Of a stretch of DNA of 64,000 nucleotides, positions 45,978-60,995 are shown in pieces (positions within the stretch are counted from its first letter, which is position 1; every line of letters begins with the position of its first letter). The translations under genes were made by a program, and so were the position numbers. This DNA comes from Candidatus Shapirobacteria bacterium (GTDB lineage: Bacteria > Patescibacteriota > Microgenomatia > UBA12405), in the NCBI GenBank assembly GCA_041665485.1, contig JBAYIT010000002.1:69867-133866 (forward strand), written 5' to 3'. The notes below the pieces were generated by a model that worked only from the letters and a program-made list of their open reading frames with translations, had not been told where the DNA came from and did no database searches.

Positions 45978-46670
45978 ATGGATATAAGAAAAATAACTCT
46001 CTTCGTTCTGGTTATCTTCTCCGGCTTGGCCCTTTCAGGTTGCGGACCGGCCAAAAAAATTGAAACAACAATTACCCCCACCCCCATCCCAAGAGTTGTT
46101 GAGATGCCAGCGGAAGATAGGCCACATATCAGCTTGATTCCCCGGGTGGACGGCCACGAACTCAAACTTAAGATAGACAAAATTCCAAGCTACGTTTCTC
46201 AAATTGAGTACGAGTTACTCTACACCGCCACCGATGAAGGCAACGAAATAGAAAAAGGAGTAGGGGACACCATAAAAGTTACCGGTAACAACCTGGAAAG
46301 AGATCTATTATTGGGAACTGCCAGTTGTACCAACGGCTGTAAATACAAATATGATGCCAACATCAACGGCGGAACCCTAACCCTTACTTTTATTAATCAA
46401 AATTCTCAAGTTTCCACCTATCAAACACCTTTTCGTTTCGTTTCCGGATCAGAATTAAAAAAGACAAAACTTCTGGACCTTCCAACCGAGAATTTTTCTA
46501 TTAGTCTCAATAATCCCGCTTCAGAATTTTTCATCCTACTTAAAAATTACCGCCCCGGATTTTCCGTTTTCAGTAGCGGTTCCGGTAAAGGAAAAGTTAT
46601 CTCCATCACTCCATCCACCTTTACTAAAACCGATCTCAATCTGATTAGTGGCGAATATCTCGGACCTTAA
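45978..46670 (+). CDS. lipoprotein, unknown function
   Basis: Signal peptide with lipobox LALSGC at residues 17-22. Hydrophilic Thr/Gly-rich mature region. Confidence 0.5.
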   Translation: MDIRKITLFVLVIFSGLALSGCGPAKKIETTITPTPIPRVVEMPAEDRPHISLIPRVDGHELKLKIDKIPSYVSQIEYELLYTATDEGNEIEKGVGDTIKVTGNNLERDLLLGTASCTNGCKYKYDANINGGTLTLTFINQNSQVSTYQTPFRFVSGSELKKTKLLDLPTENFSISLNNPASEFFILLKNYRPGFSVFSSGSGKGKVISITPSTFTKTDLNLISGEYLGP

Positions 46671-47530
46671 TGGATTACCACCAATCTGTTCTAGCCAATG
46701 AAATAGTTCAATTACTCTCTCCTGATTCTAATAAAATATTCATCGACGCCACTCTCGGCCACGGCGGACACACCCTAAAATTACTCGAAAGGGGAGCTAT
46801 TGTTTACGGACTTGACGCCGATCCATTATCCCTTGAAATTGCCAAAAAAAGGATTGGTAAAAACAGCAATTTCCACCCAATTAATGCAAACTTTAGAGAT
46901 ATTGGCCAAATTTTTAAAATCCAAATCAATCAACCACTTGACGGCATACTTTTTGATCTTGGTCTAAATCTTTATCAACTTAAACAACAAAATCGCGGAT
47001 TTTCTTTTGACGATACCGACACTCTCGATATGAGACTGAACCCAGATCAATCTTCGCCTACAGCTACCGACCTGATCAACAAACTCACCCAGACTGAACT
47101 TGAAAACTTATTTTCAAAATATGTTCAACAACCATTTTCTCGAGAAATATGTCAAACCATTGTCAATCGTCGGCAACACAGGAAAATAACCACCGCCAAA
47201 GAGCTATCTGAAATCGTAAAAGAATTTTATCTTCAGAAAAAAATATTTTCTTCAAAACATCCCGCCACTCTTATTTTTCTCGGCCTAAGAATCGCCGTTA
47301 ATCAGGAATTTGAATCGCTATCTCTGGCTCTCAATGACTGCTTATCAATCGGACTTCCCAAAACTACTATCGCCGTCATCAGTTTTCATTCCGGAGAGGA
47401 CCGGATTGTAAAAAACTTCATTCGCCAAAACAATCTCCCAACCGGACAAATTAAAAAACCGTCAACTTCGGAAATCCACCAAAACCCACTCTCTCGATCG
47501 GCCATATTAAGATGGTTTAGCCCAAAATGA
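46670..47530 (+). CDS. rsmH: 16S rRNA (cytosine1402-N4)-methyltransferase
   Basis: MDYHQSVLANEIVQLL...FIDATLGHGGHT and GILFDLGLN are RsmH/MraW motifs. First gene of the dcw cluster. Confidence 0.85.
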   Translation: MDYHQSVLANEIVQLLSPDSNKIFIDATLGHGGHTLKLLERGAIVYGLDADPLSLEIAKKRIGKNSNFHPINANFRDIGQIFKIQINQPLDGILFDLGLNLYQLKQQNRGFSFDDTDTLDMRLNPDQSSPTATDLINKLTQTELENLFSKYVQQPFSREICQTIVNRRQHRKITTAKELSEIVKEFYLQKKIFSSKHPATLIFLGLRIAVNQEFESLSLALNDCLSIGLPKTTIAVISFHSGEDRIVKNFIRQNNLPTGQIKKPSTSEIHQNPLSRSAILRWFSPK

Positions 47531-47772
47531 GTAAAATCATTAAGATCACCTTTGTCGTTATTCTTATTCTGGAGCTGACCTTCTCTATTATCTATTCTCA
47601 AATAATAGTTGAGTTAAACGGGCTGTTTCAACAATCCCAAAGCCAAGTTTCTCAAGCCAACGAACTCAATCTTGATTTAACTCAAAAACTATCAGAAATT
47701 ACCTCAATCAAATCTCTCTTGGCCAGTAGTTCAGCTAAAAATTTAAAGCCAATAACCAATGTTCTCTACTAG
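47527..47772 (+). CDS. ftsL: cell division protein FtsL-like (single TM plus coiled coil)
   Basis: 81 aa. N-terminal TM (ITFVVILILELTFSIIY) then a Q/L-rich coiled coil. Sits between rsmH and ftsI with 4-nt overlaps. Confidence 0.45.
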   Translation: MSKIIKITFVVILILELTFSIIYSQIIVELNGLFQQSQSQVSQANELNLDLTQKLSEITSIKSLLASSSAKNLKPITNVLY

Positions 47773-49342
47773 AGTTGGCTCTTTATCTGTTGCCATTATC
47801 ACTAGTTTTATTGTTATATTAGGCCGAATTATTTACTGGCAGTTTTACACTCCAACCAATCTTCGTCGTCAAGAAACCAGCCAAAACTATAGTGATCACC
47901 AAATAGACGAAAATCAAGGAAAAATATACTACAAAGACCATTCTCTCCTGGCTGGAAACAAAAGGGTATACAAATTATCTCTTTATAAACCAAATCTAGA
48001 TAAACCAATTGAAGATGTCCGTCTAATCCTTGAAAAGGAGATCACCAACCTTTTGCCTCAAGATAAAATTCGTCTCCGTTCAATTGTGGAGAAACCAAAC
48101 CTCAAGTGGGTTGACTTTGAAACCGAGATCACCAAGGAACAATATCAAAAAATAAGCACCATTGCCGGCCTCGAATTCAAATCAAAAACTAGTCGTTATT
48201 ACCCCGAGTCGGATTTGTCTCAAAATCTCTTTTTTGGTATAGAAAGCTACTATCGCCGACAACTCCAAGGAAAACCAGGATACTTTTATTCCAATCAGGA
48301 CGCTCTCGGATTACCGGTTTTAACTCAGCATTCATTATATATCGAACCAGTTGACGGTCTCGATCTATCTACGTCTATTGACCGAAGAATACAGTATTTA
48401 ACTGAAACCACCATCGCCGACGGCATCAATAAATATTCCGCTGACTCGGGAATGGCAATTGTTCTGGACCCTCAGTCAGGAGCCGTTTTAAGCCTCGTCA
48501 GTCTTGAGTCTAGCCCTTCTGCTAACCAAAACTCAAAGCTAATTGATCCAATTAGTCATCTCTTTGAACCAGGCTCAATTTTCAAACCATTAGTTGTTGC
48601 TGCCGCTCTCGATTCCAATTCCATCAGCGATGATTATGTCTGCCCCAAATGCGATCAACCATTTATTGCCAGCGGTTTCTCCATCAACAATTGGGACAAA
48701 TCTTTCCACCCCAACACTGACATTAAAGACATTATCAAAAATTCTGACAATATTGGTATGAGTAATATTGTCTTTGTTCTCGGCCAAAAACAATTTCTTA
48801 AGTATTTTAACCTTCTTGGTTTGGACAAAAAAACCGGCATTGACCTCCCCAGTGAAAATATCTCTCCAGTCAAATCATACTGGTCTGACATTGATCTGGC
48901 CACCGCCTCCTTCGGCCAAGGGCTTGCGGTTACCCCCATTCAAATGATTCAGGCCTTCAACTCTCTGGCCAACTCCGGCAAAATCGTTCATCCTCACATC
49001 AATCTTAATAACCCAATTAAGCCACCCATCAAAGTTTACTCTGAAAACACCGTCGAAAAAATAAATCAGATTCTTTCCTACGCCGTCAACAACGGAGTTG
49101 TCTCCCAATTCAAACCAAAAGATCTTGATGTTTGTGCAAAAAGTGGCACTGCTCAGGTCGCCATAAACGGACAATATTCCGACAACTCTTTCATCGCCTC
49201 ATATATTGGCTACTCTCCCTGTCGCCATCCCAAATTTACTTTACTCATAACCCTCTCCAATCCCAAAAGCTCGTCTTGGGGATCAAGTACTGCTGCCCCT
49301 TTGTGGTTCTCGTTAGCGGAAAAAATAGACAAACTGCTATAA
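47759..49342 (+). CDS. ftsI: penicillin-binding protein 2B/FtsI-type transpeptidase
   Basis: SxxK (GSIFKP), SxN (NSDNIG) and KSG(T) (AKSGTAQV) transpeptidase motifs. N-terminal TM and dimerisation domain. Confidence 0.85.
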   Translation: MFSTRVGSLSVAIITSFIVILGRIIYWQFYTPTNLRRQETSQNYSDHQIDENQGKIYYKDHSLLAGNKRVYKLSLYKPNLDKPIEDVRLILEKEITNLLPQDKIRLRSIVEKPNLKWVDFETEITKEQYQKISTIAGLEFKSKTSRYYPESDLSQNLFFGIESYYRRQLQGKPGYFYSNQDALGLPVLTQHSLYIEPVDGLDLSTSIDRRIQYLTETTIADGINKYSADSGMAIVLDPQSGAVLSLVSLESSPSANQNSKLIDPISHLFEPGSIFKPLVVAAALDSNSISDDYVCPKCDQPFIASGFSINNWDKSFHPNTDIKDIIKNSDNIGMSNIVFVLGQKQFLKYFNLLGLDKKTGIDLPSENISPVKSYWSDIDLATASFGQGLAVTPIQMIQAFNSLANSGKIVHPHINLNNPIKPPIKVYSENTVEKINQILSYAVNNGVVSQFKPKDLDVCAKSGTAQVAINGQYSDNSFIASYIGYSPCRHPKFTLLITLSNPKSSSWGSSTAAPLWFSLAEKIDKLL

Positions 49343-49354
49343 TTTAGCCATATC

Positions 49355-50572
49355 ATGCCTTCTATTAGAAAAATAAAAAATATCTTTTGGCATTTACCCA
49401 AAGCCGTTGTTGCCAACATCATTTATCAGTTTCCCAGTCGCCACCTTAAATTAATTGCCGTTACTGGCACCGATGGCAAAACTACTACCGCCACCCTCAT
49501 TCACCATCTCTTAAAAAAATCAGGAATTAAAGTCGGGCTGATTACCACTGTCACCAGCCCGGGTTTACACACCACTTCTCCTGACTCGCTAATTGTCCAA
49601 AAAGTCTTATCTGACTATTTTCACCAGGGTTATAGTCATGTTATTCTCGAAGTTACTGCCCATGCTCTTGACCAATTTCGCTTCTGGGGTTGCCACTTTC
49701 AGGTTGGAGTTTTAACCAATATCACTCACGAACATCTCGACGAATTCAAAACCATGGAAAATTACACCGCCGTCAAAGCTAGTCTCTTTTCCTCCTGCCA
49801 AACCGCCATTCTCAATAAAGACGATCCGTCTTTTCCGCAAATAAAAGCAAAATTTCCAAAAAAAATCATTCCCTACAGTATTAAATCACCCTGTAAATAT
49901 CAGGCTAAAAATATCCATCTTACCTCAAATTCCATTACCTTTACCGCCAATAGGCTAAAGATAGTCACCGACAGCCCTTATCGTTATCAAATTTACAACA
50001 TTCTTCCAAGTCTTATAATCTCTGACCTTTTCAAACTAAAGCGGTCAAGTTTTCAAAAAAATATCGCCGTTTTTCCTCACATCTCCGGACGCAGACAAGA
50101 GGTCAACAATCGTTTTGGTTTCAAAACTATTGTTGATTTTGCCCACACCCCCAATGCTCTCAAAAACACTCTTGAATCTCTCAAGAAAAAAAGGGGGAGC
50201 AAAATAATTGTTATCTTTGGAGCCACCGGTGGCCGAGACCAATCCAAACGTCCGCTTATGGGCAAGGTCGTTTCTGAATTGTCTGATATTGCCATCATTA
50301 CCTCCGACGACACCAGAAGTGAAAACATCTCCGTCATTAATCGTCAAATAATCTCCGGAATCACAAAAAATAAGAAATTCAAATATTATCAAATCGAAAA
50401 CCGTCAAGAGGCTTTTAATTATGCTGTTAGTATTGCCAAAACCAACGACATCATTATCGCCTGTGGCAAAGGTCACGAACAAACCATTCTCCTCGGTAAT
50501 ATCGAATACCCCTGGTCTGAAACCGCCGCCTTTCAAACCGCCTTCAAACTAAGAAGTCAAAAACATGACTAA
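49355..50572 (+). CDS. murE: UDP-N-acetylmuramoyl-L-alanyl-D-glutamate--diamino-acid ligase (MurE) lacking the N-terminal UDP-binding domain
   Basis: IYQFPSRHLKLIAVTGTDGKTTTA aligns to the E. coli MurE domain-2 start (FYHEPS..LVGVTGTNGKTTT). C-terminal GGRDQSKRPLMG and TSDDTRSEN correspond to MurE GGDRDKGKRPLMG and TDDNPRTEE. Only about 30 residues precede the P-loop; there is no room upstream for domain 1. Confidence 0.75.
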   Translation: MPSIRKIKNIFWHLPKAVVANIIYQFPSRHLKLIAVTGTDGKTTTATLIHHLLKKSGIKVGLITTVTSPGLHTTSPDSLIVQKVLSDYFHQGYSHVILEVTAHALDQFRFWGCHFQVGVLTNITHEHLDEFKTMENYTAVKASLFSSCQTAILNKDDPSFPQIKAKFPKKIIPYSIKSPCKYQAKNIHLTSNSITFTANRLKIVTDSPYRYQIYNILPSLIISDLFKLKRSSFQKNIAVFPHISGRRQEVNNRFGFKTIVDFAHTPNALKNTLESLKKKRGSKIIVIFGATGGRDQSKRPLMGKVVSELSDIAIITSDDTRSENISVINRQIISGITKNKKFKYYQIENRQEAFNYAVSIAKTNDIIIACGKGHEQTILLGNIEYPWSETAAFQTAFKLRSQKHD

Positions 50573-51155
50573 ATATAATCTAAAACCATCCAGTCCAGAC
50601 CCTGCCACAAACTATGCTCTTGGTTTACTCCCTCAAAGAAACGTGGCCCACCTCTGGTATCAGGACACCAGTTGCCGATCTAATCTTTCAAAATTTAAGC
50701 TTTCCTCAGAAAACAAAAGAATAATAAAATTAACCGGCGATTTTGAATTCGAAAAAATACCTTTATTAAAATTTAACCTATCATCAAGTCTCCTAAACAC
50801 CATAAACACCTGGTCTGAGACCCTGGACTGGCAATTTCCCAAAAGCTCAATTAGAAATGTTTTTACTCACCACATCTTCAATTATCTTTACCTCTGGAAA
50901 AAAACAGGCAGTCAGAATGTTGTTGCCTATTCTGTCTGTTATTTTGATCAAAACATCTCTCATATCGCCTACGTTTTTTATCACCCCAGTCTGGCCCGAA
51001 CCAATCTTCCCATCAGGCTGACTCTTCAATCCATTATTGATAGTCAAAAATTGGGGCTAAAATATTGTTATCTTGGTCGTTTCAGTCATTACAAACGCAA
51101 CTTTCCCGGATTTGAACATTATCAAAATCAAATCTGGTCGGATTACCGCCACTAA
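50565..51155 (+). CDS. hypothetical protein; weak resemblance to aminoacyl-tRNA-protein transferase (ATE_C/Bpt, Fem-like fold) C-terminal region
   Basis: 196 aa. The C-terminal YCYLGRFSHYKRNFPGFEHYQNQIW recalls the ATE/Bpt YLGY..KM.YK..F.P.E...W region. The match is from memory only and weak. Confidence 0.25.
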   Translation: MTKYNLKPSSPDPATNYALGLLPQRNVAHLWYQDTSCRSNLSKFKLSSENKRIIKLTGDFEFEKIPLLKFNLSSSLLNTINTWSETLDWQFPKSSIRNVFTHHIFNYLYLWKKTGSQNVVAYSVCYFDQNISHIAYVFYHPSLARTNLPIRLTLQSIIDSQKLGLKYCYLGRFSHYKRNFPGFEHYQNQIWSDYRH

Positions 51156-51159
51156 CAAC

Positions 51160-52461
51160 ATGAAAATACACATTTTAGGTATCGCCGGAACTAAAACAGC
51201 CCCCCTTGCCATTCTTTTGCAAAGAATGGGCCACCAAGTTAGTGGTTCTGATCAGCCACAAATTTTTCCCCCCATCAGTACCCTGCTTGCTAAAAACAAA
51301 ATCCCTATCAATTCCACTCCCATCACCAAAGAAATTGATCAGGTTATTGTCGGCAACTCTTTTAAATCATTCCAACTTTGTCAATCAGAATACCAACAGG
51401 CACAAAAGCTTAAAATCCCCACCATGTCTTACACCCAGTACCTAATTAGAAATCTTATTAAAAAACAATCAATACTTGTTGCCGGATCTTATGGTAAAAC
51501 AACTATCACTGGTTTATTATCGTTTGTTTTTCTTAAACTTAAACTTGACCCGTCGTATATGTTTGGTGGCCAAGCGGTAAATCATCTCGAATCAACCAGA
51601 TTCGGTCAGTCTGATTTTTCAATTATCGAAGCCTGTGAGTCTATAAACGGACTAGATACCCAGTCAACATTCCTATATTATCCAATTAAGTACGTCATAT
51701 TGACATCCGCCGATTGGGAACATAAAGATTCCTTTAAAACCGAACAAGAAAATTTAAAAGCATTTATTCAACTGGTTAGTAAAATCCCTAAAAATGGCCT
51801 ACTTGTCTATAACCCCAAAAGCAAATCAGCCTCATCAGTCGCCCAATACTCTTCGGCCAAAAAAGTACCGTACAACTACTCTTTAAACATAAACCCGATT
51901 ATTCCCGGAAAATATAACTTCGAAAACTCACTTGCAGTGGCTACTCTCTGCCAAGAATTAGGGTTGAATAAAATCGCATTCATCAAAGCCATTAATCAAT
52001 TCCGAGGAATTAAACGTCGATTAGAACCTATTTACCACCACAAAGACATATTGATATACGACGATTTCGCCCAATCTCCGGTAAGAATAAGCCAAGCGCT
52101 TCAAGCTATATCCGAAAAACATCCAAACTGTCCGATCAAAGTTTTTTTCGAACCTCATGCCTCCTTTCTTCAATACCAAGCCGGAATTAAAGGTCTTAAA
52201 GAATCTCTCCAAATAGCCACTGAAATTATTGTTTCGCCATTAAAATTTTCTGAAAGTGTCTCTAAATCAGACAGAGTAACTATTAAGGACTATCAAAAAA
52301 TTCTTGAAAAAAAAATGGAATACATTCCCGATTACCAATTGATTTCCCAACATTATCTTCAAACACTTCAAAAGGGGGATATCTTAATTCATTTTAGCTC
52401 CGGAGGCCTTAATGGCCTTACTTGCTTAAAAAAGATTGCTAAAAACTTAATTTCCCGATAA
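51160..52461 (+). CDS. MurC/Mpl-family UDP-N-acetylmuramate--amino acid/peptide ligase, Mpl-like
   Basis: Start at ATG 51160. MKIHILGIAGT..LAILLQRMGHQVSGSDQPQIFPPISTLL resembles Mpl (MRIHILGICGT..GHEVTGSD..YPPMSTLL). P-loop LVAGSYGKTT, GQSDFSIIEA, YDDFAQSP (compare Mpl YDDFAHHP). Confidence 0.65.
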   Translation: MKIHILGIAGTKTAPLAILLQRMGHQVSGSDQPQIFPPISTLLAKNKIPINSTPITKEIDQVIVGNSFKSFQLCQSEYQQAQKLKIPTMSYTQYLIRNLIKKQSILVAGSYGKTTITGLLSFVFLKLKLDPSYMFGGQAVNHLESTRFGQSDFSIIEACESINGLDTQSTFLYYPIKYVILTSADWEHKDSFKTEQENLKAFIQLVSKIPKNGLLVYNPKSKSASSVAQYSSAKKVPYNYSLNINPIIPGKYNFENSLAVATLCQELGLNKIAFIKAINQFRGIKRRLEPIYHHKDILIYDDFAQSPVRISQALQAISEKHPNCPIKVFFEPHASFLQYQAGIKGLKESLQIATEIIVSPLKFSESVSKSDRVTIKDYQKILEKKMEYIPDYQLISQHYLQTLQKGDILIHFSSGGLNGLTCLKKIAKNLISR

Positions 52462-52470
52462 CATTAACCA

Positions 52471-53505
52471 ATGACTCATCTTTTTCTCGGTCTGCTCCTC
52501 TTTTCTTTTTTAACCACCAGCATTCTCGTTGTCCCTTTCATAAATCTTCTCTACCGCCTTAAATTTCAACGTCAGAACCAAAAAACAGTTGACTTCCAGA
52601 ATAAAAAAACTGAAATATTTGATAAGTTTCACTCTCAAAAACAGGGGACTCCTGTCGGTGGTGGCCTCCTCATTATTCTTTCCGTCTGCCTTCTTTTCAT
52701 TATTCTTCTTCCTATTCTAAAATTTGCTCGTATTTTTATCTCCTCTAACTACCAAATGGAGAGTGAACTGGGCATAATTTTCTTCTCTTTCATTAGTTTT
52801 GCTCTTCTCGGCCTATATGATGATGTTCACAAGTTTTTCGGCTTCCAAAAAACAGGCTTTTTTGGATTGAAGATGCGCCAAAAGCTACTTCTCCAAATTT
52901 TTTTGGCCACCGTTATTTCTTGTCTAATTTACTTCCAACTAGGAATTAACTTTATTTACATCCCCTTTGCTGGAGCTGTTAGTCTTGGTCTGTTTTTTAT
53001 TCCCATAAGCAGTGTTATTATCGTTGCCTTCGCCAACTTCTTCAATATTACTGACGGGCTTGACGGCCTTTCCTGCGGGCTTTTAATGATTTCTCTTTTT
53101 GCTTTTTGGTTTCTTAGTAGCAACTCTCTGGATACTCCAATTTCTCTCTTTCTTAGTCTGTGGCTGGGAGCATTAATTGCCTTCCTGTATTTCAATGTCT
53201 TTCCCGCCCGCATCTGGCTGGGCGACGTCGGCTCTCTCTCCTTTGGAGCCACCTTTGCCGTCATCGCCATTCTTCTCGGAAAAATTGTCCCTCTTATTAT
53301 TGTTGGCTCACCCTTCATTATTGAAGGCCTTTCCAGTGCTATCCAGATTATTAGTAAGAAATATTTTAATCGAAAAATATTCCCTGCCGCTCCCATCCAC
53401 CTCACCCTCCAACATTTTGGTTGGGAAGAGCCAAAAATCGTTCTTCGTGCTTGGCTTGCCGGTATTATTCTCGCTATCTTTGGCCTATGGCTCGGACTAA
53501 ACTAG
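52471..53505 (+). CDS. mraY: phospho-N-acetylmuramoyl-pentapeptide-transferase
   Basis: NITDGLDGL and WLGDVGSLSFGATFA are MraY signature motifs. 10 TM segments, 344 aa. Confidence 0.9.
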   Translation: MTHLFLGLLLFSFLTTSILVVPFINLLYRLKFQRQNQKTVDFQNKKTEIFDKFHSQKQGTPVGGGLLIILSVCLLFIILLPILKFARIFISSNYQMESELGIIFFSFISFALLGLYDDVHKFFGFQKTGFFGLKMRQKLLLQIFLATVISCLIYFQLGINFIYIPFAGAVSLGLFFIPISSVIIVAFANFFNITDGLDGLSCGLLMISLFAFWFLSSNSLDTPISLFLSLWLGALIAFLYFNVFPARIWLGDVGSLSFGATFAVIAILLGKIVPLIIVGSPFIIEGLSSAIQIISKKYFNRKIFPAAPIHLTLQHFGWEEPKIVLRAWLAGIILAIFGLWLGLN

Positions 53506-54194
53506 AAAAATTACTAACAGAAGAGGTCAATCATTATTTAGGAATTCCGTATGCTAAAAACTACTGGAAAAACAACCTCTTAATTAAAGAGGCTATTCTT
53601 GGTGGCAAAGGAACCTGGCCGGAAATTGACTACGCCACCACTTGCGCCGGAGAAAAATACCAAGTTGACATCACCTCTCTATCACCCAAAGAACTCTATA
53701 ATTTTCAAAAAAAACACAAGATCGGCATCGATTGCTCCGGTCTCGTCTACCACCTACTCGATTTCATCGATAAAAATATTGGCGCAAATGGCATTCTATT
53801 TAAAGTTGTCAGTGTTAATCCTAATCATGGCAAATATGGCGTTAGGTCACTATCAGCCGACAGCCTCACCAATTCTATAAATTCTTACCCCATCACCAAT
53901 TATTCTCATGTTCAGCTCGGAGATTTAATTCGCCATCATCAAGGCAAGCACACTCTCCTTATTACCGGCCAAAAGAACAACCGCCTCAACTATGTTCACA
54001 GTAGTCTCACCACTTTAGTTTCCGGAGTTCACACCGGCTATATCAAAATAATTGACCCTCAAAAACCACTTTTTTACCAAGATTGGACCGATGTCACTAA
54101 AAACCACCAAAAATATCAGGAACTTTCTGACTCCAAAGCCGGGGACGGCATATATCGCCTTAATTGCTGGAAAAATATTACTTTTCCTCTATAA
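53487..54194 (+). CDS. NlpC/P60-family (papain-like) cell-wall peptidase/amidase-like protein
   Basis: Start at ATG 53487, overlapping the mraY 3' end by 19 nt. GIDCSGLVYHLL is the NlpC/P60 catalytic Cys motif. A downstream His-containing region (HVQLGDLIRHHQGKH) follows. Confidence 0.5.
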   Translation: MARTKLEKLLTEEVNHYLGIPYAKNYWKNNLLIKEAILGGKGTWPEIDYATTCAGEKYQVDITSLSPKELYNFQKKHKIGIDCSGLVYHLLDFIDKNIGANGILFKVVSVNPNHGKYGVRSLSADSLTNSINSYPITNYSHVQLGDLIRHHQGKHTLLITGQKNNRLNYVHSSLTTLVSGVHTGYIKIIDPQKPLFYQDWTDVTKNHQKYQELSDSKAGDGIYRLNCWKNITFPL

Positions 54195-54345
54195 GTTCTC
54201 GATATTTAGATGGGTCTAAAGATAATATCTCTACTTCCGTTCCACATTCTTGGCACTCTAAAATGTCGCCAACTTCCAGCAATCCTTCTGTTTTTTTAAT
54301 CTCCATTCCGCAATCTGGGCAAATAATTTTTTTGTTTTGGTCCAT
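54178..54345 (-). CDS. LysW-like C4 zinc-ribbon small protein (55 aa), not in the supplied ORF track
   Basis: Reverse complement translates to MDQNKKIICPDCGMEIKKTEGLLEVGDILECQECGTEVEILSLDPSKYRELIEEK. The CPxCG...GE...C.ECG.E.E...LDP pattern mirrors LysW/ArgW amino-group carrier proteins (CPECGAEL..GELVVCEDCGAELEVVGLDP). The C-terminus is EEK, not the canonical ..EDWGE. Confidence 0.45.
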   Translation of the reverse strand: MDQNKKIICPDCGMEIKKTEGLLEVGDILECQECGTEVEILSLDPSKYRELIEEK

Positions 54346-54378
54346 ATAGAGTAAAATAAAATCTAACTAACCTATTAT

Positions 54379-55167
54379 ATGACACCTTTAATCAAATTCG
54401 AAAACATCTACTTTAAGAGGGAAGATCAAAACCCTACCGGGTCGGCCAAAGATCGAAGCCTTCCACTGCAACTAAAAAATCTTCTTGCTAAAAACTATCA
54501 ATCAGCTGTCATCTCATCTTCTGGTAACGCCGCCATCTCTGCTATCTTTTATTGTCGAAAACTAAATATTCCTCTCAAAGTCTTTCTTTCTCCACAAACT
54601 GATCCTTACAAATTAAAATTAATTCTCTCTCAACATCAGGATGTCACCCTTACTCCATCTCCCAATAGTCTGGCTTTTAAATACGCCAAAACTAACCATT
54701 CATATCTCCTGCGTCAATCAACCGACCCTGTTGCCCAAATCGGTTACTCCACTATTGCCACCGAAATAGTTTCCAAGCTCCCTCTTGTTTCCAGCATCTT
54801 TATACCTGTTGGCTCCGGAACCACTCTCCTTGGCGTCTCCAAAAATTTACCCCAAAACGTAAAAATATTCGCCGTAGAACCGGCCTCTCGCTACGGCCAA
54901 GAATCAGAAACTATCACCGACGCACTATCTGTCAAACTAACCCCTCTTAAATCAGAAGTCGCCGAAGCTATTAAAAAACATCACGGGTCAAATATCATCG
55001 TAAGAAACCAAGCCGTTTTAGATAATCTAAAAAAACTCCATCAACATCAAATAAACACTTCTCCCGAAGGCGCTCTTGCTTTAACAGGCTATTATCAAGC
55101 CAAAACAAAATTTGAAGTTGGAGACTACCCCGTTATTTTATTAACTGGCATTAATCGCCAAATATGA
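54379..55167 (+). CDS. fold-type II PLP-dependent enzyme, cysteine synthase/CBS (CysK)-like, short (262 aa)
   Basis: FKREDQNPTGSAKDRSL is the PLP-lysine motif (CysK E..NPxGSvKDR, threonine synthase NPTGSFKDR). SSGNAAISAIFYC matches TSGNTG. A Gly-rich loop PVGSGTTLLG is present. Confidence 0.6.
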   Translation: MTPLIKFENIYFKREDQNPTGSAKDRSLPLQLKNLLAKNYQSAVISSSGNAAISAIFYCRKLNIPLKVFLSPQTDPYKLKLILSQHQDVTLTPSPNSLAFKYAKTNHSYLLRQSTDPVAQIGYSTIATEIVSKLPLVSSIFIPVGSGTTLLGVSKNLPQNVKIFAVEPASRYGQESETITDALSVKLTPLKSEVAEAIKKHHGSNIIVRNQAVLDNLKKLHQHQINTSPEGALALTGYYQAKTKFEVGDYPVILLTGINRQI

Positions 55168-56213
55168 AAAAACTAATCCAACTAATTATCAACTCTGGCT
55201 ACACTATCATTTATCCTCAGGTCGACGAATTCCTCGGAATTGATTTCCCCCAACTTAATTGCTTTCATTCTCTCAAAAATGAATCAAAAACAGTAAAAAA
55301 TACTGGCCAATTTCTTAAATCAAACCTGAAATTCATAAGTCAGGAATTTAAACCGCCAATCGCCATCATGCCTTTCAAACCATCAGCCAAAACCGAAAAA
55401 ATTTGCCAAAAGCAAAATTGGCTGGTTCTAAGCAATCCCGCCAAATTAAATCGTCTACTGGAAGACAAAATAAAATTCAGCCAACTTTGCCACCAACACA
55501 AACTCCCCACCATCCCCCATCTTGTCGCTCCACTCGATCAAGAAAATTTTCTTTTGGCTCAAAAAAAATTTGGCCCGAAACTCGTTCTTCAAACTCACTT
55601 CGGCTGGGCCGGCAATAGCACCTTTTATTTTGAAAGTTATCAGGAAATCGCCAATAAAATTTCCCCAAACACCCTTTGTAAGTTTTCACCCTACCTGGAG
55701 GGCTACACTCTCATTAACAACTGCTGTCAAACAAAATTTGGTCTAATTCAAAGCCCAGTTGGCCGTCAACTTACCGGCCTTAAAGAATATACCCAAAACC
55801 CTTTTGCCACTGTTGGACGTCAGTGGCCCTCTCTTGCTCCTCAATCTGTTATCAATCAGGTGGTTGAGGTTACTAAACTACTATCCGACAAATTGCTAAA
55901 AAAATACGATTATCGTGGTTTTTTCGGAATAGATTTTTTTGTCCACCAAAACCGAGTTATGATTCTTGAAATTAATCCCCGATTAACCGCCTCATTTGGT
56001 TTCTACACTAAACTCGAAACGGATAACAATATCACCCCTCTTTTCCTCTTTCACTTAGCCGAATTTCTTAACCTTGATTATCAGGTCGATTTTGATCGAG
56101 AACAGTCAAGAACTGACTCCTCTTTAATTGTTGGCACCGAAATAACTCCCAAAGACAAGTTCGGTAAAACCATTGCCCAATACCACCAGACTTCCCCTAT
56201 TATCAAGGATTAG
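55164..56213 (+). CDS. ATP-grasp family ligase (RimK/LysX/Ddl-like), specificity unknown
   Basis: LEDKIKFSQLCHQHKLPTIPHL (central domain) and RGFFGIDFFVHQNRVMILEINPRLTAS (C-terminal Mg/ATP site) are generic ATP-grasp motifs. It lacks the Ddl N-terminal HG..GEDG signature. Confidence 0.55.
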   Translation: MKKLIQLIINSGYTIIYPQVDEFLGIDFPQLNCFHSLKNESKTVKNTGQFLKSNLKFISQEFKPPIAIMPFKPSAKTEKICQKQNWLVLSNPAKLNRLLEDKIKFSQLCHQHKLPTIPHLVAPLDQENFLLAQKKFGPKLVLQTHFGWAGNSTFYFESYQEIANKISPNTLCKFSPYLEGYTLINNCCQTKFGLIQSPVGRQLTGLKEYTQNPFATVGRQWPSLAPQSVINQVVEVTKLLSDKLLKKYDYRGFFGIDFFVHQNRVMILEINPRLTASFGFYTKLETDNNITPLFLFHLAEFLNLDYQVDFDREQSRTDSSLIVGTEITPKDKFGKTIAQYHQTSPIIKD

Positions 56214-57252
56214 CCCGCTAATTTGGCTACCAATAAGTATTACCATAATTGGCTTATTCTTTATTTCTCTTGCCAGCCCGTCAGAAGCCAAAAGTTTTGG
56301 TAGTCCAACCTATTTTCTGGAACGACAATTTATTTGGGCAATCGTTGCCTTCCTTCTCTATTTTATTGCCACCAAAATTCCTGTTAATTTACTTTTTCGC
56401 CACTCTATTTGGCTTTACTTAATCTCTATTGTCGGACTAATAATCGTTCTTATTCCTCAACTCGGCCATCAAGCTCTTGGAGCCAGCCGTTGGTTCCGAT
56501 TCGGCCAAATTGGCATTCAACCAACCGAAATTTTCAAACTAACTGGAATCATTGTTTTTAGCCAAATATTTTCTCAAGCCAAATATCAGTCACTCAAATA
56601 TCTTTTATATTTTCTCTGTCCGCCACTACTTCTCATTCTCCTCGAACCAAACTTTAGTGCCGTTGTTCTCATTTGTGCTATTACTATCTCCATCTATTAC
56701 CTTTCCGGAGCTAGTCTCAACGATTTAGTCATCCTTAGCCTTATCGGCCTTGCCTCTGGTTGCATCCTTGTTGTCACTTCACCCTATAGGTTAGCCAGAT
56801 TCAACAGTCTAACTTCACCCGACAGCCAAAAAAGCTACCATTCTCAACAACTAATCATCAGCCTCTCTGCCGGAGGCTGGTTTGGTAAAGGTCTAACTAA
56901 CTCTAATCAAAAATTTCAATTCCTTCCCAAAATTTCTACCGACTCAATTATGGCTGTTATTGCTGAAGAAACGGGCATTGTCGGTATTGTTGCCATCTTC
57001 TACCTCTATCTAACTTTAATCGGCCATCTCTTTAAATTATCAAAAAAAGTTATTGCCCCATATTCTCTTTTCGTCGCCGGCATCGCCTGTTGGCTTGCTT
57101 TCCAGGCTTTGGTTAATGCCGCTGCTGTTTCTTCTCTGGTTCCTTTAACCGGTGTCCCTCTGCCTTTAATTTCCTACGGCGGATCTTCACTTGTTAGTCT
57201 AATAGTTGCCTTTGGACTAGCAAAAAATATAGAATCAAAATATGCCAAATAA
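56173..57252 (+). CDS. ftsW: SEDS-family peptidoglycan glycosyltransferase FtsW/RodA
   Basis: 10 TM segments. The C-terminal VPLPLISYGGSSLVSL SEDS signature is present. Sits in the dcw cluster before murG. Confidence 0.85.
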   Translation: MPNTTRLPLLSRISPLIWLPISITIIGLFFISLASPSEAKSFGSPTYFLERQFIWAIVAFLLYFIATKIPVNLLFRHSIWLYLISIVGLIIVLIPQLGHQALGASRWFRFGQIGIQPTEIFKLTGIIVFSQIFSQAKYQSLKYLLYFLCPPLLLILLEPNFSAVVLICAITISIYYLSGASLNDLVILSLIGLASGCILVVTSPYRLARFNSLTSPDSQKSYHSQQLIISLSAGGWFGKGLTNSNQKFQFLPKISTDSIMAVIAEETGIVGIVAIFYLYLTLIGHLFKLSKKVIAPYSLFVAGIACWLAFQALVNAAAVSSLVPLTGVPLPLISYGGSSLVSLIVAFGLAKNIESKYAK

Positions 57253-58297
57253 TAAGGTAATCTGCCTTACCGGCAATCACCATACTCCAGCCATAGAACT
57301 TATTCGCCAACTAAAACAGCAACCCCAAAAGTGGCAAATAAGCTATTTAACCCACAGCTATCAAACTGAGACTCACATCAAAAACACCATTATTCCTAAA
57401 CTCAATGTCAGCCTCCATCTAATTCAATGCAACAAATTCGACCGTCAAAAACCACTTCTGTCCATCTTTAAAACACCACTCTTAATCGTTGGCATTTTTC
57501 AATCTTTATTACTTCTTAAGTCGGAAAAACCAGATATTGTCGTTTCTTTTGGTGGTTATGTTTCTGTTCCGGTAATTATTGCTGCTTGGATTCTCAAAAT
57601 TCCCTCAATCACCCACGAACAAACACTCACTATCGGCCTGGCTACCAAAATAAATAGTTACTTCTGCCAAAAAGTTGCTCTGTCTTTTCCTGGTCCTGAC
57701 ATTAACAATAAAACTATCGTCACTGGCAATCTTCTTCGCCAACAAATCTTCGATACCAAATCAAAAAAATATCAAAGTCTTGAATCAAAAATTAAAAAAT
57801 CACCACTAATTTATATCACCGGAGGCAGTCAAGGATCCCAATTTATTAATGACTTAACCGTTAGTATTTTACCTCAACTTAGCCAATACACAATTATCCA
57901 TCAAACCGGGCCAAAACCAACTCAAACAAACAACAAATATCCCAATTATCACCAGACCGAATATATTGACCTCGAAGATATCGGCTGGGTTTTCCACCAA
58001 TCCTCTTTAATTGTCAGCCGAGCCGGGGCTAATATTTGTCAGGAAATTGCCACTCTCAACCATCAATCAATTATTATTCCTCATCCCAAAACTCAACAAG
58101 ACGAACAAATAAAAAACGCCCAGTGGCTTAAATCAAGATTACCGGAATTAACCACTATTATTCCTCAATCAAAAGCCAACTCTAGTTTAGTTACAAGGGC
58201 GATTTTTAAACACCTTAATTCCAAAATTAAAAACAACAAAACAATCGCGGGCCAAACAACCCATCCTCTAATCAATCTCATCAATGAAATGGTTTAA
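57242..58297 (+). CDS. murG: UDP-GlcNAc--undecaprenyl-PP-MurNAc-pentapeptide GlcNAc transferase
   Basis: GT28 architecture. LIYITGGSQGSQFIN (MurG GGSQGA motif). N-terminal LTGNHHTPAIEL Gly-rich loop variant. Confidence 0.8.
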   Translation: MPNNKVICLTGNHHTPAIELIRQLKQQPQKWQISYLTHSYQTETHIKNTIIPKLNVSLHLIQCNKFDRQKPLLSIFKTPLLIVGIFQSLLLLKSEKPDIVVSFGGYVSVPVIIAAWILKIPSITHEQTLTIGLATKINSYFCQKVALSFPGPDINNKTIVTGNLLRQQIFDTKSKKYQSLESKIKKSPLIYITGGSQGSQFINDLTVSILPQLSQYTIIHQTGPKPTQTNNKYPNYHQTEYIDLEDIGWVFHQSSLIVSRAGANICQEIATLNHQSIIIPHPKTQQDEQIKNAQWLKSRLPELTTIIPQSKANSSLVTRAIFKHLNSKIKNNKTIAGQTTHPLINLINEMV

Positions 58298-58658
58298 AGT
58301 TCTTCTCATTATTTTTATTGTCGCCTCTTTCTTCTTCTTTAGATTGTCACTTCACTATCAAAATATCTCCCCAAATTCAAACAATCTTAGTCAGTATCTT
58401 AAATTCAAGTCCGCCCTGGAATCAAACGGTTTTATAATCCACACGATCGATATAAGCTCCCTAAATCAAGCTAAAGTATTAATTTCAAACACCAAGGAAA
58501 CCCCATCATTCACTGTTTACTTCAATCTTGATCATCCCATCGAGCAACAGCTTATGCTCTTACAAAAGGTAACTAAAATCGCTACAATTAAACTTAAATA
58601 CCCCTACCTTATAGATTTCGGCGGGGAAAAACCATATGCCACACTCAAAAATAATTAG
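58284..58658 (+). CDS. small bitopic membrane protein, possible minimal FtsQ/DivIB-like (POTRA only)
   Basis: 124 aa. N-terminal TM (VLLIIFIVASFFFF) plus a roughly 95-aa periplasmic domain. The position between murG and ftsA is the canonical ftsQ slot. Confidence 0.3.
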   Translation: MKWFKVLLIIFIVASFFFFRLSLHYQNISPNSNNLSQYLKFKSALESNGFIIHTIDISSLNQAKVLISNTKETPSFTVYFNLDHPIEQQLMLLQKVTKIATIKLKYPYLIDFGGEKPYATLKNN

Positions 58659-59883
58659 CGGATTGGATATCGGCACGTCCAAAATTACCGCCATTGTCAG
58701 CCAGTATTTTGAAGTAGAAAACAAACTGAATGTTGTTGCTGTCGCCTCAGTTCCCGCCACTGGCTTTCGTAAGGGTCAAATCGTCAATCTTGAAGAGGCC
58801 AGCAAAACCCTTAATCAGTGTATTGAATCTGCCGAAAGAATGGCCGGCTTTGAAATAAGTAACCTTCATATTTCCCTCGCCGCCAACTACATTGAATCCG
58901 TCAATTCTCAAGGAGTCGTCGCCATTAGTAATCCTAACGGAGAAATCGGCAAAGATGACATTGTCAGAGTTATTGAAGCTGCCAAGGCTATTTCTTTACC
59001 AACCGGCAAAGAAATTATTCACGTTATTCCCCGAAGGTATACCGTTGACGGTCAAGATGGCATCATTGATCCCGTTGGTATGAACGGTATCAGACTGGAG
59101 CTCGAAGCCCACATTATTCTTGCCTCAACTCCAGCTCTCAAAAATCTCCACAAATGCCTCGAAGAAATTGGTATTACTCCTATCAGCATTATTTACTCCG
59201 GCCTTACCACCACTAAAGCTGCCGCCACTGAAACCGAAAAAGAGCTTGGAGTTGCTATTGTCGATATCGGTGGATCAATTACCACCATCACTATTTACCA
59301 AGAAGGCTCCCCAACCTACTCGGCTGTTATCCCCGTTGGAGCCAACAATGTCACCAACGATTTGGCCATTGGCCTGAGATTATCAATTGACGAAGCTGAA
59401 AAAATTAAACTCCGCCTCGGTCGGATTATTGAAAATAAAAAATATCAAGACGAAATTGAACTATCTCAATTTGGCATAACCACCGATGAAAATCATAAAA
59501 TTTCTCTTCAAACCGCCGTTAGCGGAATTATCAAACCCCGGCTTGAAGAAGTCTTTTCTCTAGTTTGGAAACAAATTGAAGCCAGTGGTTTCTCTGAATC
59601 CATACCCGCCGGTGTCGTCCTAACTGGTGGAGGATCACTAACCACTCAAACCAGAGATATTTGTGGCAAAATTATTCCTCTACCTCTCCGTCTTGCTTCC
59701 CCCCCCAAAATTGGCGGAATAGTTGATGAAATATCCAACCCTGCTTTTACTAGTACTATCGGCTTGATTCTTTATGTTAAAGACAATCAGCAACCGCAAA
59801 CCACTAAAAACAAGAAAAGTAGGGTCAATATTGGTGGCATATTTGGTAGATTAAAAAACATTATTGAACCACTTCTTCCCTAA
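58636..59883 (+). CDS. ftsA: cell division protein FtsA
   Basis: N-terminal ISGLDIGTSKITAIV (actin-fold phosphate-1) and VVDIGGSITTITIY (phosphate-2). 415 aa. Confidence 0.9.
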   Translation: MPHSKIISGLDIGTSKITAIVSQYFEVENKLNVVAVASVPATGFRKGQIVNLEEASKTLNQCIESAERMAGFEISNLHISLAANYIESVNSQGVVAISNPNGEIGKDDIVRVIEAAKAISLPTGKEIIHVIPRRYTVDGQDGIIDPVGMNGIRLELEAHIILASTPALKNLHKCLEEIGITPISIIYSGLTTTKAAATETEKELGVAIVDIGGSITTITIYQEGSPTYSAVIPVGANNVTNDLAIGLRLSIDEAEKIKLRLGRIIENKKYQDEIELSQFGITTDENHKISLQTAVSGIIKPRLEEVFSLVWKQIEASGFSESIPAGVVLTGGGSLTTQTRDICGKIIPLPLRLASPPKIGGIVDEISNPAFTSTIGLILYVKDNQQPQTTKNKKSRVNIGGIFGRLKNIIEPLLP

Positions 59884-60995
59884 TGGCTCTCATAAAAACC
59901 CTTGCCGGTCAATTTGCCAAAATTAAAGTTCTCGGAGTTGGTGGCGGTGGCAATAATGCCATCAATTCCATGATTAGCCTCGACAATATCCAGGGGGTAG
60001 AGTTTATCGCCATTAACACTGATTCCCAGGCCCTCTTAAACTCTCAGGCACCAATCAAAATTCAAATTGGAGAAAAATTAACCAAGGGCCTTGGCGCTGG
60101 CAGTGACCCCCAAATCGGCGAACAAGCCGCCGAAGAATCGAAAGACAAAATCAGAGAAGTTTTGGAAAATGCTGATATGGTTTTCATCACCGGTGGCATG
60201 GGTGGGGGAACCTGCACCGGCGCCGCCCCCATAATTGCTAAAATCGCCAAAGAAGAATTGGGTATTTTAACCATCGGTGTTGTCACTAAACCTTTTCTTT
60301 TCGAAGGCACCCGCCGAATGACCAAAGCCGAAGAAGGTATTCGGGAACTCAAGCAACACCTAGACACCTTGGTAGTTATCCCTAATCAGAAAGTCATGGA
60401 GGTTGTTAATAGCCAAACTACCATGATTGATGCTTTTAAAATCGCCGATTCGGTTCTCAACAAGGGCACCAAGGCCATTGCCGACCTTATTACCACTCCC
60501 GGCCTAATTAATCTTGATTTTGCCGATATAAAGTCAATTATGAACAACGCCGGCACCGCTCTGATGGGAGTCGGAGAAGCTGAAGGCGACAACAAAGCCA
60601 GGGAAGCTGTTAGTGCTGCCATCGACTCACCCCTCGTTGATGTTGATATCCGAGGCGCTCGGGGCGTTCTTATCAATATCACCGGTGGACCAGATCTGAC
60701 TATGGCTGAAATTGAAGATGCTGCCCAAACCATTACTCATAGCACCTCGCCCGACGCCAATATTATTTTCGGAGCCACTATTGACCCCGAGCTTAAAGGT
60801 AAAATAAGAATTACTGTTATCGCCACCGGTTTTAGCACCGATAGGCCAAAATCTTATTCTCAAGCTCCAATCAAACTGATTGAAGAAAACCACCCATCTC
60901 CCCAAGTTCAACAACTAATGAACGACCAGGAAATACCTGAAGGGATTGATATTGTCGATGAATTTGACATCCCCGCCTTCTTAAGAAAAAAGTAG
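59883..60995 (+). CDS. ftsZ: cell division GTPase FtsZ
   Basis: GVGGGGNNAI, GGGTGTGAAPIIA (tubulin signature), NTDSQAL. 370 aa. Confidence 0.95.
   Translation: MALIKTLAGQFAKIKVLGVGGGGNNAINSMISLDNIQGVEFIAINTDSQALLNSQAPIKIQIGEKLTKGLGAGSDPQIGEQAAEESKDKIREVLENADMVFITGGMGGGTCTGAAPIIAKIAKEELGILTIGVVTKPFLFEGTRRMTKAEEGIRELKQHLDTLVVIPNQKVMEVVNSQTTMIDAFKIADSVLNKGTKAIADLITTPGLINLDFADIKSIMNNAGTALMGVGEAEGDNKAREAVSAAIDSPLVDVDIRGARGVLINITGGPDLTMAEIEDAAQTITHSTSPDANIIFGATIDPELKGKIRITVIATGFSTDRPKSYSQAPIKLIEENHPSPQVQQLMNDQEIPEGIDIVDEFDIPAFLRKK

Follow-up and report, generated by a model that had tools for sequence, protein, structure and literature searches.

Few bacterial pathways are as conserved and as well studied as the synthesis of peptidoglycan precursors, which is a prime antibiotic target. 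Chemistry on carrier-bound amino acids is known from LysW/LysX/LysK, from CysO/CysM/Mec and from glutathionylspermidine synthetase/amidase (GspS). The LysW/ArgW systems are represented by LysW-LysX/ArgX-LysZ-LysY-LysJ-LysK in Thermus, Sulfolobus and Thermococcus and by AmCP in Streptomyces, and the C-terminal tail of LysW behaves as a swinging arm. Here we describe a four-gene module in the division and cell wall (dcw) cluster of a Candidatus Shapirobacteria genome, which belongs to the Microgenomates of the Candidate Phyla Radiation (CPR). The module lies in a stretch of 64,000 nucleotides of contig JBAYIT010000002.1, hereafter called the window. It encodes an NlpC/P60-like hydrolase, a LysW-like zinc ribbon in antisense orientation, a pyridoxal phosphate (PLP) dependent enzyme of fold-type II and an ATP-grasp ligase. 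The four proteins co-occur, the enzymes fuse pairwise and the module is tied to cytoplasmic peptidoglycan genes. We tentatively propose, as a reading that we hold with a little less than even confidence, that the module performs a load-modify-release cycle on a carrier protein for cytoplasmic peptidoglycan precursor synthesis in CPR bacteria, and that it occupies or accompanies the position of murD.

The likeness to the LysW/ArgW systems lies in the small acidic C4 zinc-ribbon protein, in its flexible C-terminal tail, in the union of an ATP-grasp enzyme, a PLP enzyme and a hydrolase in one gene unit, and in the carrier remaining unfused. However, the ribbon described here ends in EEK instead of EDWGE, and its terminal residue offers an amine and not a γ-carboxyl group. 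Its ATP-grasp partner comes from another family than RimK/LysX, its PLP enzyme is of fold-type II in contrast to the LysJ-type aminotransferase, and its hydrolase is an NlpC/P60-like cysteine enzyme in place of the LysK metallohydrolase. Neither a kinase nor a reductase belongs to the unit, whose genes are found with murD and the dcw cluster of CPR bacteria. A canonical LysW/LysX system was rejected because the tail motif differs, because the ATP-grasp enzyme is of another family and because LysZ, LysY, LysJ and LysK are not encoded nearby. The CysO-CysM-Mec-MoeZ system for protein-bound cysteine synthesis in Mycobacterium tuberculosis is parallel in logic, but none of its own parts, namely the ubiquitin-like β-grasp carrier with a GG-thiocarboxylate, the E1-like adenylyltransferase and the JAMM protease, has a homolog here. 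With GspS and the γ-D-Glu-L-Lys endopeptidases of the YkfC type the module appears to share an ATP-grasp-type ligase joined or fused with an amidase of the NlpC/P60/CHAP superfamily that acts on a γ-glutamyl-type amide, as well as a probably cytoplasmic P60 enzyme. A sequence relationship beyond the superfamily was not detectable, and the module has a carrier protein and a PLP enzyme in addition.

Alternative routes to D-amino acids of the cell wall were also compared. The classical alanine racemase Alr belongs to fold-type III and the glutamate racemase MurI is cofactor-independent, in contrast to the fold-type-II PLP enzyme of the module. In Xanthomonas, MurD2 and MurL add L-Glu first and epimerize it afterwards on the UDP-MurNAc-L-Ala tether. 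The likeness to MurD2/MurL is conceptual only and consists in an alternative D-Glu route with ATP-coupled epimerization of tethered glutamate, whereas that pathway uses a different tether and unrelated enzymes. No published description of the module was found in full-text searches of the literature, in agreement with the preliminary description of this DNA, which had regarded the combination as undescribed in a dcw context. The module could prove categorically new if its attachment chemistry or its product is unprecedented.

The preliminary description, made from the sequence of the window without database searches, had reported three genes at 54178-56213 between an mraY/P60-like pair and ftsW. 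All three open reading frames (ORFs) are present exactly there, but the P60-like gene is part of the unit as well, which brings the number of its genes to four. The slot and its boundaries are as follows.

52471-53505, plus strand: MraY (Glycos_transf_4, E 4.5e-28), conserved neighbor and upstream boundary of the slot
53487-54194, plus strand: P60-like hydrolase, 235 amino acids (aa) from a conserved ATG that is the most likely start; the mechanically called ORF begins at 53421
54178-54345, minus strand: LysW-like zinc ribbon, 55 aa
54346-54378: divergent spacer, 33 nucleotides (nt) between the start codons of the ribbon and PLP genes
54379-55167, plus strand: PLP enzyme of fold-type II, 262 aa
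55164-56213, plus strand: ATP-grasp ligase, 349 aa
56173-57252, plus strand: FtsW (FTSW_RODA_SPOVE, E 2e-76), conserved neighbor and downstream boundary of the slot

The genes are tightly packed. The 3' ends of the ribbon and P60-like genes overlap convergently by 17 nt (54178-54194), and the last 4 nt of the PLP gene are shared with the start of the ATP-grasp gene (55164-55167), which suggests translational coupling of the latter two. Because 33 nt alone separate the divergent start codons of the ribbon and PLP genes, their promoters must be located inside coding sequence. Promoter or terminator signals above shuffled expectation were not found in this spacer.

Conservation of the arrangement was surveyed with ORFs that were called by script and matched against the window proteins. 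The species-level survey used one genome per species and yielded 80 loci, mostly labelled Shapirobacteria, with 42-55% protein identity. A metagenome scan with the wider ATP-grasp family (19-sequence alignment) added ~80 loci. The sets are partly redundant (L001 and L005 are one contig), and the NCBI labels of many metagenome-assembled genomes are placeholders. In the Shapirobacteria loci that span the region, the order MraY, P60-like, ribbon (minus strand), PLP enzyme, ATP-grasp, FtsW is essentially invariant, so that the order between mraY and ftsW, for which a survey of related genomes had been proposed, is kept in ~80 Shapirobacteria species loci. The antisense ribbon lies immediately upstream of the PLP gene, with the ATP-grasp gene following, in 142 of the 143 loci with enough upstream sequence, and among relatives the start codons of the ribbon and PLP genes are a median of 40 nt apart. 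In most loci the P60-like gene immediately precedes the ribbon gene. This gene arrangement is far beyond chance.

Natural fusions connect the enzymes. One protein of 782 aa joins PALP and ATP-grasp domains (P0393), and three others join ATP-grasp and NlpC/P60 domains (P0300, P0317 and P0351; NLPC_P60 1e-17 to 1e-19). At the fusion loci a LysW-like ribbon is again found antisense and directly upstream, and the adjoining Mur ligase is MurD (TIGR01087, 258 and 228 bits; cut-off 212). The ribbon itself was found in no fusion and is always a separate polypeptide, also where the enzymes are fused. Three arrangements can be distinguished. The first is embedded in the dcw cluster with the order (MurC-MurB-)MurA-Ddl-MurF-MraY-P60-ribbon(-)-PLP-ATPgrasp-FtsW-MurG; it contains a genuine Ddl and MurF, yet the usual MurD slot is without MurD. 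The second is a stand-alone unit of ~20 loci, P60-MurD-ribbon(-)-PLP-ATPgrasp, with a genuine murD inside the module. The third is the Shapirobacteria order of the window. The catalytic motifs are intact in all three enzymes of the module. The evidence on the module consists of homology, conservation, fusions and gene context.

The expectation that the slot holds neither murD nor ddl was borne out, with no homolog of either across the window. In a phmmer search with E. coli and CPR references, MurF, MurI, Alr and MurB were likewise without a homolog in these 64 kb. Between mraY and ftsW no ligase reaches the level of TIGR01087, and just a MurE-like and a MurC-like ligase were found in the window.

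The ribbon scores 34.7 bits against the Pfam model Zn_ribbon_LysW (PF21344; gathering cut-off 27), and among PDB entries it matches best the LysW proteins 3wwl of Thermus (E 8e-7) and 5k2m_E of Thermococcus (5.5e-6), which agrees with the LysW-likeness claimed at the outset. Both equivalog models were missed: TIGR01206 gives 38.7 bits where 53.2 are required, and NF041070 gives 23.1 where 75 are. Judging from these matches, the ribbon is a LysW homolog in its globular domain. In the window its C-terminus reads YRELIEEK, and the alignment with LysW ends three residues short of the C-terminal end; the LysW tail EEAEDWGE is absent. The terminal residue is a lysine in 123 of 125 unique ribbon homologs, with a near-invariant EEK, and 118 of 119 homologs have 25 aa between the second CxxC and the C-terminus. 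The 125 unique sequences, which come from diverse CPR lineages, have a mean net charge of -7.5, and the isoelectric point (pI) of the window ribbon is 4.4. A very acidic mini-protein with a tail of fixed length and an invariant end is what a swinging arm reaching into active sites would be expected to look like. In some Shapirobacteria a 102-aa MazG-like NTP pyrophosphohydrolase is encoded directly downstream of the ribbon and in the same orientation (L001, 8697-9005, minus strand; L003, 8656-8964, minus strand; L021). The window, like most loci, has no such gene.

The ATP-grasp ligase exceeds the cut-off of the Pfam family ATP-grasp_3, its AlphaFold2 model has a clear ATP-grasp fold (mean predicted local distance difference test score, pLDDT, 96.4) and it contains the E-x-N-x-R Mg/ATP motif. 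It is a shortened member of a family of 430-480 aa that is related to PRK06524; a profile search of 1.8 billion representatives found 251 clusters of the wider family at E < 1e-30. The family assignment in the preliminary description stands, but the ligase is not of the RimK/LysX type that was named there as the known partner of LysW-type carriers. The nearest folds are small-molecule carboxylate ligases, among them BesA and PylC, although this comparison gives a lean towards a substrate class only, and the lower Z-scores of LysX and RimK may in part be due to these proteins being smaller. BesA is a γ-Glu ligase and PylC acylates the ε-amine of lysine. An ordinary Ddl was rejected: the ligase scores 13-15 bits against Ddl models with cut-offs of 245-310 (TIGR01205, 13.4 against 245.65), it has no Dala_Dala_lig match in Pfam, and a true Ddl and MurF stand beside the module in relatives. 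Since a genuine Ddl (Dala_Dala_lig_N and Dala_Dala_lig_C) and MurF adjoin the module in related clusters, the ATP-grasp enzyme is not a Ddl substitute. The suggestion that a PLP/ATP-grasp pair replaces Ddl chemistry is contradicted by these genes, which lie directly upstream of the module.

Distant paralogs of the ligase were found in other surroundings. One of them (P0342, PRK06524-like, 194 bits) belongs to a different type of cluster (L171, 2075-10480) with 7TM_transglut, ATPgrasp_ST, MATCAP, FGase, the paralog itself, a Ddl-like ATP-grasp and a GNAT protein, which looks like a separate peptide-ligase system. Another is located within a glycosyltransferase region. Membership of the ATP-grasp family alone therefore does not define the function.

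The PLP enzyme matches PALP (PF00291) with E 4.5e-40. It carries the Schiff-base lysine Lys24 within NPTGSAKDR, the Ser-Gly-Asn loop and the Gly-rich phosphate loop. Fold-type II and the lysine motif were thus correctly recognized in the preliminary description, but CysK and CBS are no closer than threonine synthase, threonine deaminase and serine racemase. In the ranking by hidden Markov models (HMMs), archaeal ThrC-like models are at the top, all far under their cut-offs (TIGR00260, 29.9 bits against 167; PRK08329, 85 against 358). An ordinary CysK was rejected on scores far under the cut-offs of the CysK/CysM models (TIGR01139, 29.9 bits against 351; TIGR01136, 34.2 against 344). Sequence comparison with the PDB gives serine racemase and threonine deaminases as the best matches, and the AlphaFold2 model (pLDDT 92) lies at equal structural distance from dehydratases, aspartate racemase, Fn1220, ThrC, CysM and SbnA. 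The window enzyme is without the N-terminal ~40-60 aa of ThrC, and longer relatives retain a ThrC-type N-terminal motif. Taken from these comparisons, the enzyme is a minimal fold-type-II core of a CPR-specific, apparently ThrC-derived family. None of the ordinary outcomes that had been considered beforehand, a usual Ddl, a usual cysteine synthase or a ribbon without conservation, was found, as shown by the HMM scores and by the 142 of 143 loci.

K24, R26, G49, N50, R112 and E230 are invariant among 133 unique sequences of the PLP enzyme. In HMM alignments E230 falls on the serine of the E-P-S-G/S-A motif. This serine forms a hydrogen bond to the pyridine N1 of PLP in threonine deaminase and serine racemase. 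An acidic residue at PLP N1 is unusual in fold-type II, ACC (1-aminocyclopropane-1-carboxylate) deaminase being the known case. Glu230, which is placed at the N1 position by alignment only, would favor carbanionic chemistry. The hallmarks of serine and aspartate racemases are missing, as Glu230 stands in place of the N1 serine in 133 of 133 sequences and R112-Q-S takes the place of the H-P-N / S-S-S loop. A racemase-type role of the enzyme is possible.

The alignment of the divergent P60-like family shows an invariant Cys in DCSG, a G-x-H motif and a His in Y-x-HS, which were matched to Spr/MepS. NLPC_P60 was detected in 10 of 17 relatives, weakly (best 8.6e-5), and the pairwise similarity between the fused NLPC_P60 domains and the P60-like family is confined to the Cys motif. 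No signal peptide or transmembrane segment was evident by eye in the P60-like protein, which is therefore probably cytoplasmic. NlpC/P60 enzymes typically cleave γ-D-glutamyl bonds.

How and where the ribbon is covalently loaded in the proposed cycle, with which substrate and to which product, we infer as follows. The acidic ribbon would be a mobile carrier whose tail of fixed length presents the C-terminal EEK successively to three basic enzymes. The ATP-grasp enzyme would spend ATP to create an amide at the terminal lysine of the ribbon. It might acylate the ε-amine of this lysine with the carboxylate of an amino acid, like PylC and BesA, or it might extend or recharge the C-terminus of the ribbon. 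The PLP enzyme, with Glu protonating N1 of PLP, would then transform the tethered or incoming amino acid, and the NlpC/P60-like cysteine hydrolase would cut the (iso)peptide bond, by which the product is freed and the carrier regenerated. In a more specific version, L-Glu would be tethered via its γ-carboxyl group to the ε-amine of the lysine, followed by PLP-dependent epimerization and D-specific release. Such an ATP-driven, controlled conversion of tethered L-Glu to D-Glu for MurD is possible but rather doubtful in our view. Among the specific versions it is favored because murD is the embedded ligase and because NlpC/P60 enzymes cut γ-D-glutamyl bonds.

Several observations weigh against the load-modify-release cycle. 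The tail of the ribbon is ~5 aa shorter than that of LysW, is without the EDWGE motif and ends in lysine, and the ATP-grasp enzyme is not RimK/LysX-like by either HMM or fold comparison. The P60-like protein of the window has no significant Pfam match of its own. The basic pI of the module enzymes is typical of the proteome. The ribbon is encoded on the opposite strand, sometimes together with the MazG-like gene, and could therefore have a separate role. The cluster contains no murD either in the window or in the dcw-embedded arrangement and, as the scan for murD and murI covered the 64-kb window, the link to D-Glu rests on gene context in sister lineages. Nevertheless, a carrier-dependent pathway that feeds peptidoglycan, which had been one of the two readings offered at the outset, is the best reading of the 142 of 143 adjacencies, the fixed EEK tail, the fusions of the enzymes and the embedded murD.

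Other explanations have to be considered. The unit might catalyze a β- or γ-replacement on the carrier, similar to CysO/CysM/Mec, in which the ε-amine of the ribbon lysine or a loaded amino acid attacks a PLP-bound aminoacrylate or vinylglycine. The result would be a diamino-dicarboxylic acid of the lysinoalanine, diaminopropionate or diaminopimelate-surrogate type. The P60-like protein would clip off the product, the ATP-grasp enzyme would recharge the EE end with lysine, in the way TTL and RimK extend C-termini, and the product would be a cross-linking residue for MurE. This chemistry, already proposed in the preliminary description with lanthionine and diaminopropionate derivatives as examples that the analysis neither favors nor disfavors, is in line with the derivation of the PLP enzyme from ThrC-like replacement enzymes and with the invariant terminal lysine on a tail of exact length, and the N-terminally truncated MurE of the cluster hints at an unusual step at position 3. 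However, the Mur ligase inside the module is MurD and not MurE, the ATP-grasp enzyme is nearer to small-molecule ligases than to LysX, RimK or TTL, a Glu at PLP N1 is atypical among the β-replacement enzymes of fold-type II, and the module is without an enzyme that activates the donor, such as a serine kinase or acetyltransferase. We consider the replacement route unlikely. To the same degree we doubt that the module works without carrier chemistry, that is, as a racemase or dehydratase of free amino acids together with a ligase of free amino acids or dipeptides, making a non-canonical unit of the stem peptide or cross-bridge, with the ribbon being regulatory, scaffolding or merely syntenic. 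The structural proximity of the ATP-grasp enzyme to L-amino-acid and peptide ligases would fit such free substrates, as would a ribbon on the opposite strand that is at times co-oriented with MazG. The adjacency of the ribbon in very divergent lineages, fusion loci included, is hard to explain without a functional tie, though, and the tail of exact length with its EEK terminus suggests that it is directed to active sites. The recurrent P60 partner and its fusion imply that the module not only forms an amide bond but also cleaves one, and a pure replacement of Ddl is excluded by the coexisting Ddl and MurF.

The module might also serve the salvage of peptidoglycan peptides, which appears improbable to us. 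A cytoplasmic YkfC-like P60 peptidase would split scavenged stem peptides of the host at γ-D-Glu-Lys/DAP (diaminopimelate), the ATP-grasp and PLP enzymes would re-tailor and re-ligate the pieces for MurD and an Mpl-like MurC, and the EEK tail of the ribbon would mimic or compete with the Glu-Lys end of a stem peptide. Biosynthesis in CPR bacteria is minimal (PMC6744442), which suits this explanation, as do the scores of the MurC-like ligase on both MurC and Mpl models, the apparently cytoplasmic P60-like protein and the resemblance of the E-K end of the ribbon to the D-iGlu-Lys junction. But the module has no conserved transporter or LD-carboxypeptidase, salvage would leave the LysW-like fold and the PLP enzyme without a clear role, and the explanation is read purely from context.

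Returning to the carrier-bound cycle, we speculate that a large CPR clade makes an essential amino acid of peptidoglycan on the C-terminal lysine of a carrier, most plausibly D-glutamate and otherwise a new diamino acid, although we would not bet on this. The PLP enzyme would invert or rebuild the loaded amino acid, and a γ-glutamyl-type NlpC/P60 hydrolase would set free the correct product alone. If true, the carrier-bound route would replace MurI and, where murD is missing from the cluster, as in this Shapirobacteria genome, the MurD step too might be replaced. LysW-type carrier chemistry would then extend from the lysine and arginine biosynthesis of thermophiles and archaea to the bacterial cell wall, with a new attachment residue (the C-terminal lysine), a new ligase family and a PLP enzyme with an unusual active-site Glu. 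A conserved four-gene module in or next to the MurD slot in many uncultivated bacteria would mean an unrecognized variant of a textbook pathway. Small, soluble proteins make up the module, so the hypothesis can be tested directly in vitro although cultivation of the organisms is not possible.

The remaining genes of the dcw cluster are as follows.

46670-47530: MraW
between MraW and the MurE-like ligase: FtsL, then FtsI
49355-50572, plus strand: MurE-like ligase, N-terminal domain absent
50565-51155, plus strand: ATE_C-like protein, 196 aa
ending at 52461, after the ATE_C-like gene: MurC/Mpl-like ligase
downstream of FtsW: MurG, an FtsQ-like protein, FtsA, FtsZ and IleS

With these genes the cluster (46670-60995) contains two Mur ligases only, MurE-like and MurC/Mpl-like, and is without MurA, MurB, MurD, MurF and Ddl. 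In most Shapirobacteria relatives, unlike in the window, MurA is encoded between murC and mraY. The MurC-like protein of the window scores under the MurC as well as the Mpl cut-offs. The MurE-like ligase (405 aa) begins to align near position 90 of the MurE model, which has 486 positions, and therefore lacks the N-terminal UDP-binding domain; despite this truncation it still exceeds the cut-off of the subfamily model TIGR01085. The protein encoded between murE and murC shows weak similarity to the C-terminal part of arginyl/leucyl-tRNA-protein transferases (ATE_C, 8e-5; arginyltransferase models, ~1e-6). Its position is kept in Shapirobacteria and in the dcw-embedded arrangement (L173), and by analogy to Fem proteins it may be a tRNA-dependent aminoacyl transferase that acts on a peptidoglycan precursor.

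Upstream of the dcw cluster, at 22900-44000, lies a long surface-polysaccharide region with genes of the dTDP-rhamnose type (RmlA/B/C/D-like, judged by eye), many glycosyltransferases of the families GT2 and GT4 and large polytopic membrane proteins. The DNA of the window has a GC content of ~39% and a strong C skew. In 2-kb bins the GC skew is negative throughout positions 1-64000, with values from -0.11 to -0.47, and it persists over the minus-strand genes (~700-22900) as well as the plus-strand genes (~29000-64000). The strand asymmetry of the window is thus unusually large and not tied to gene orientation.

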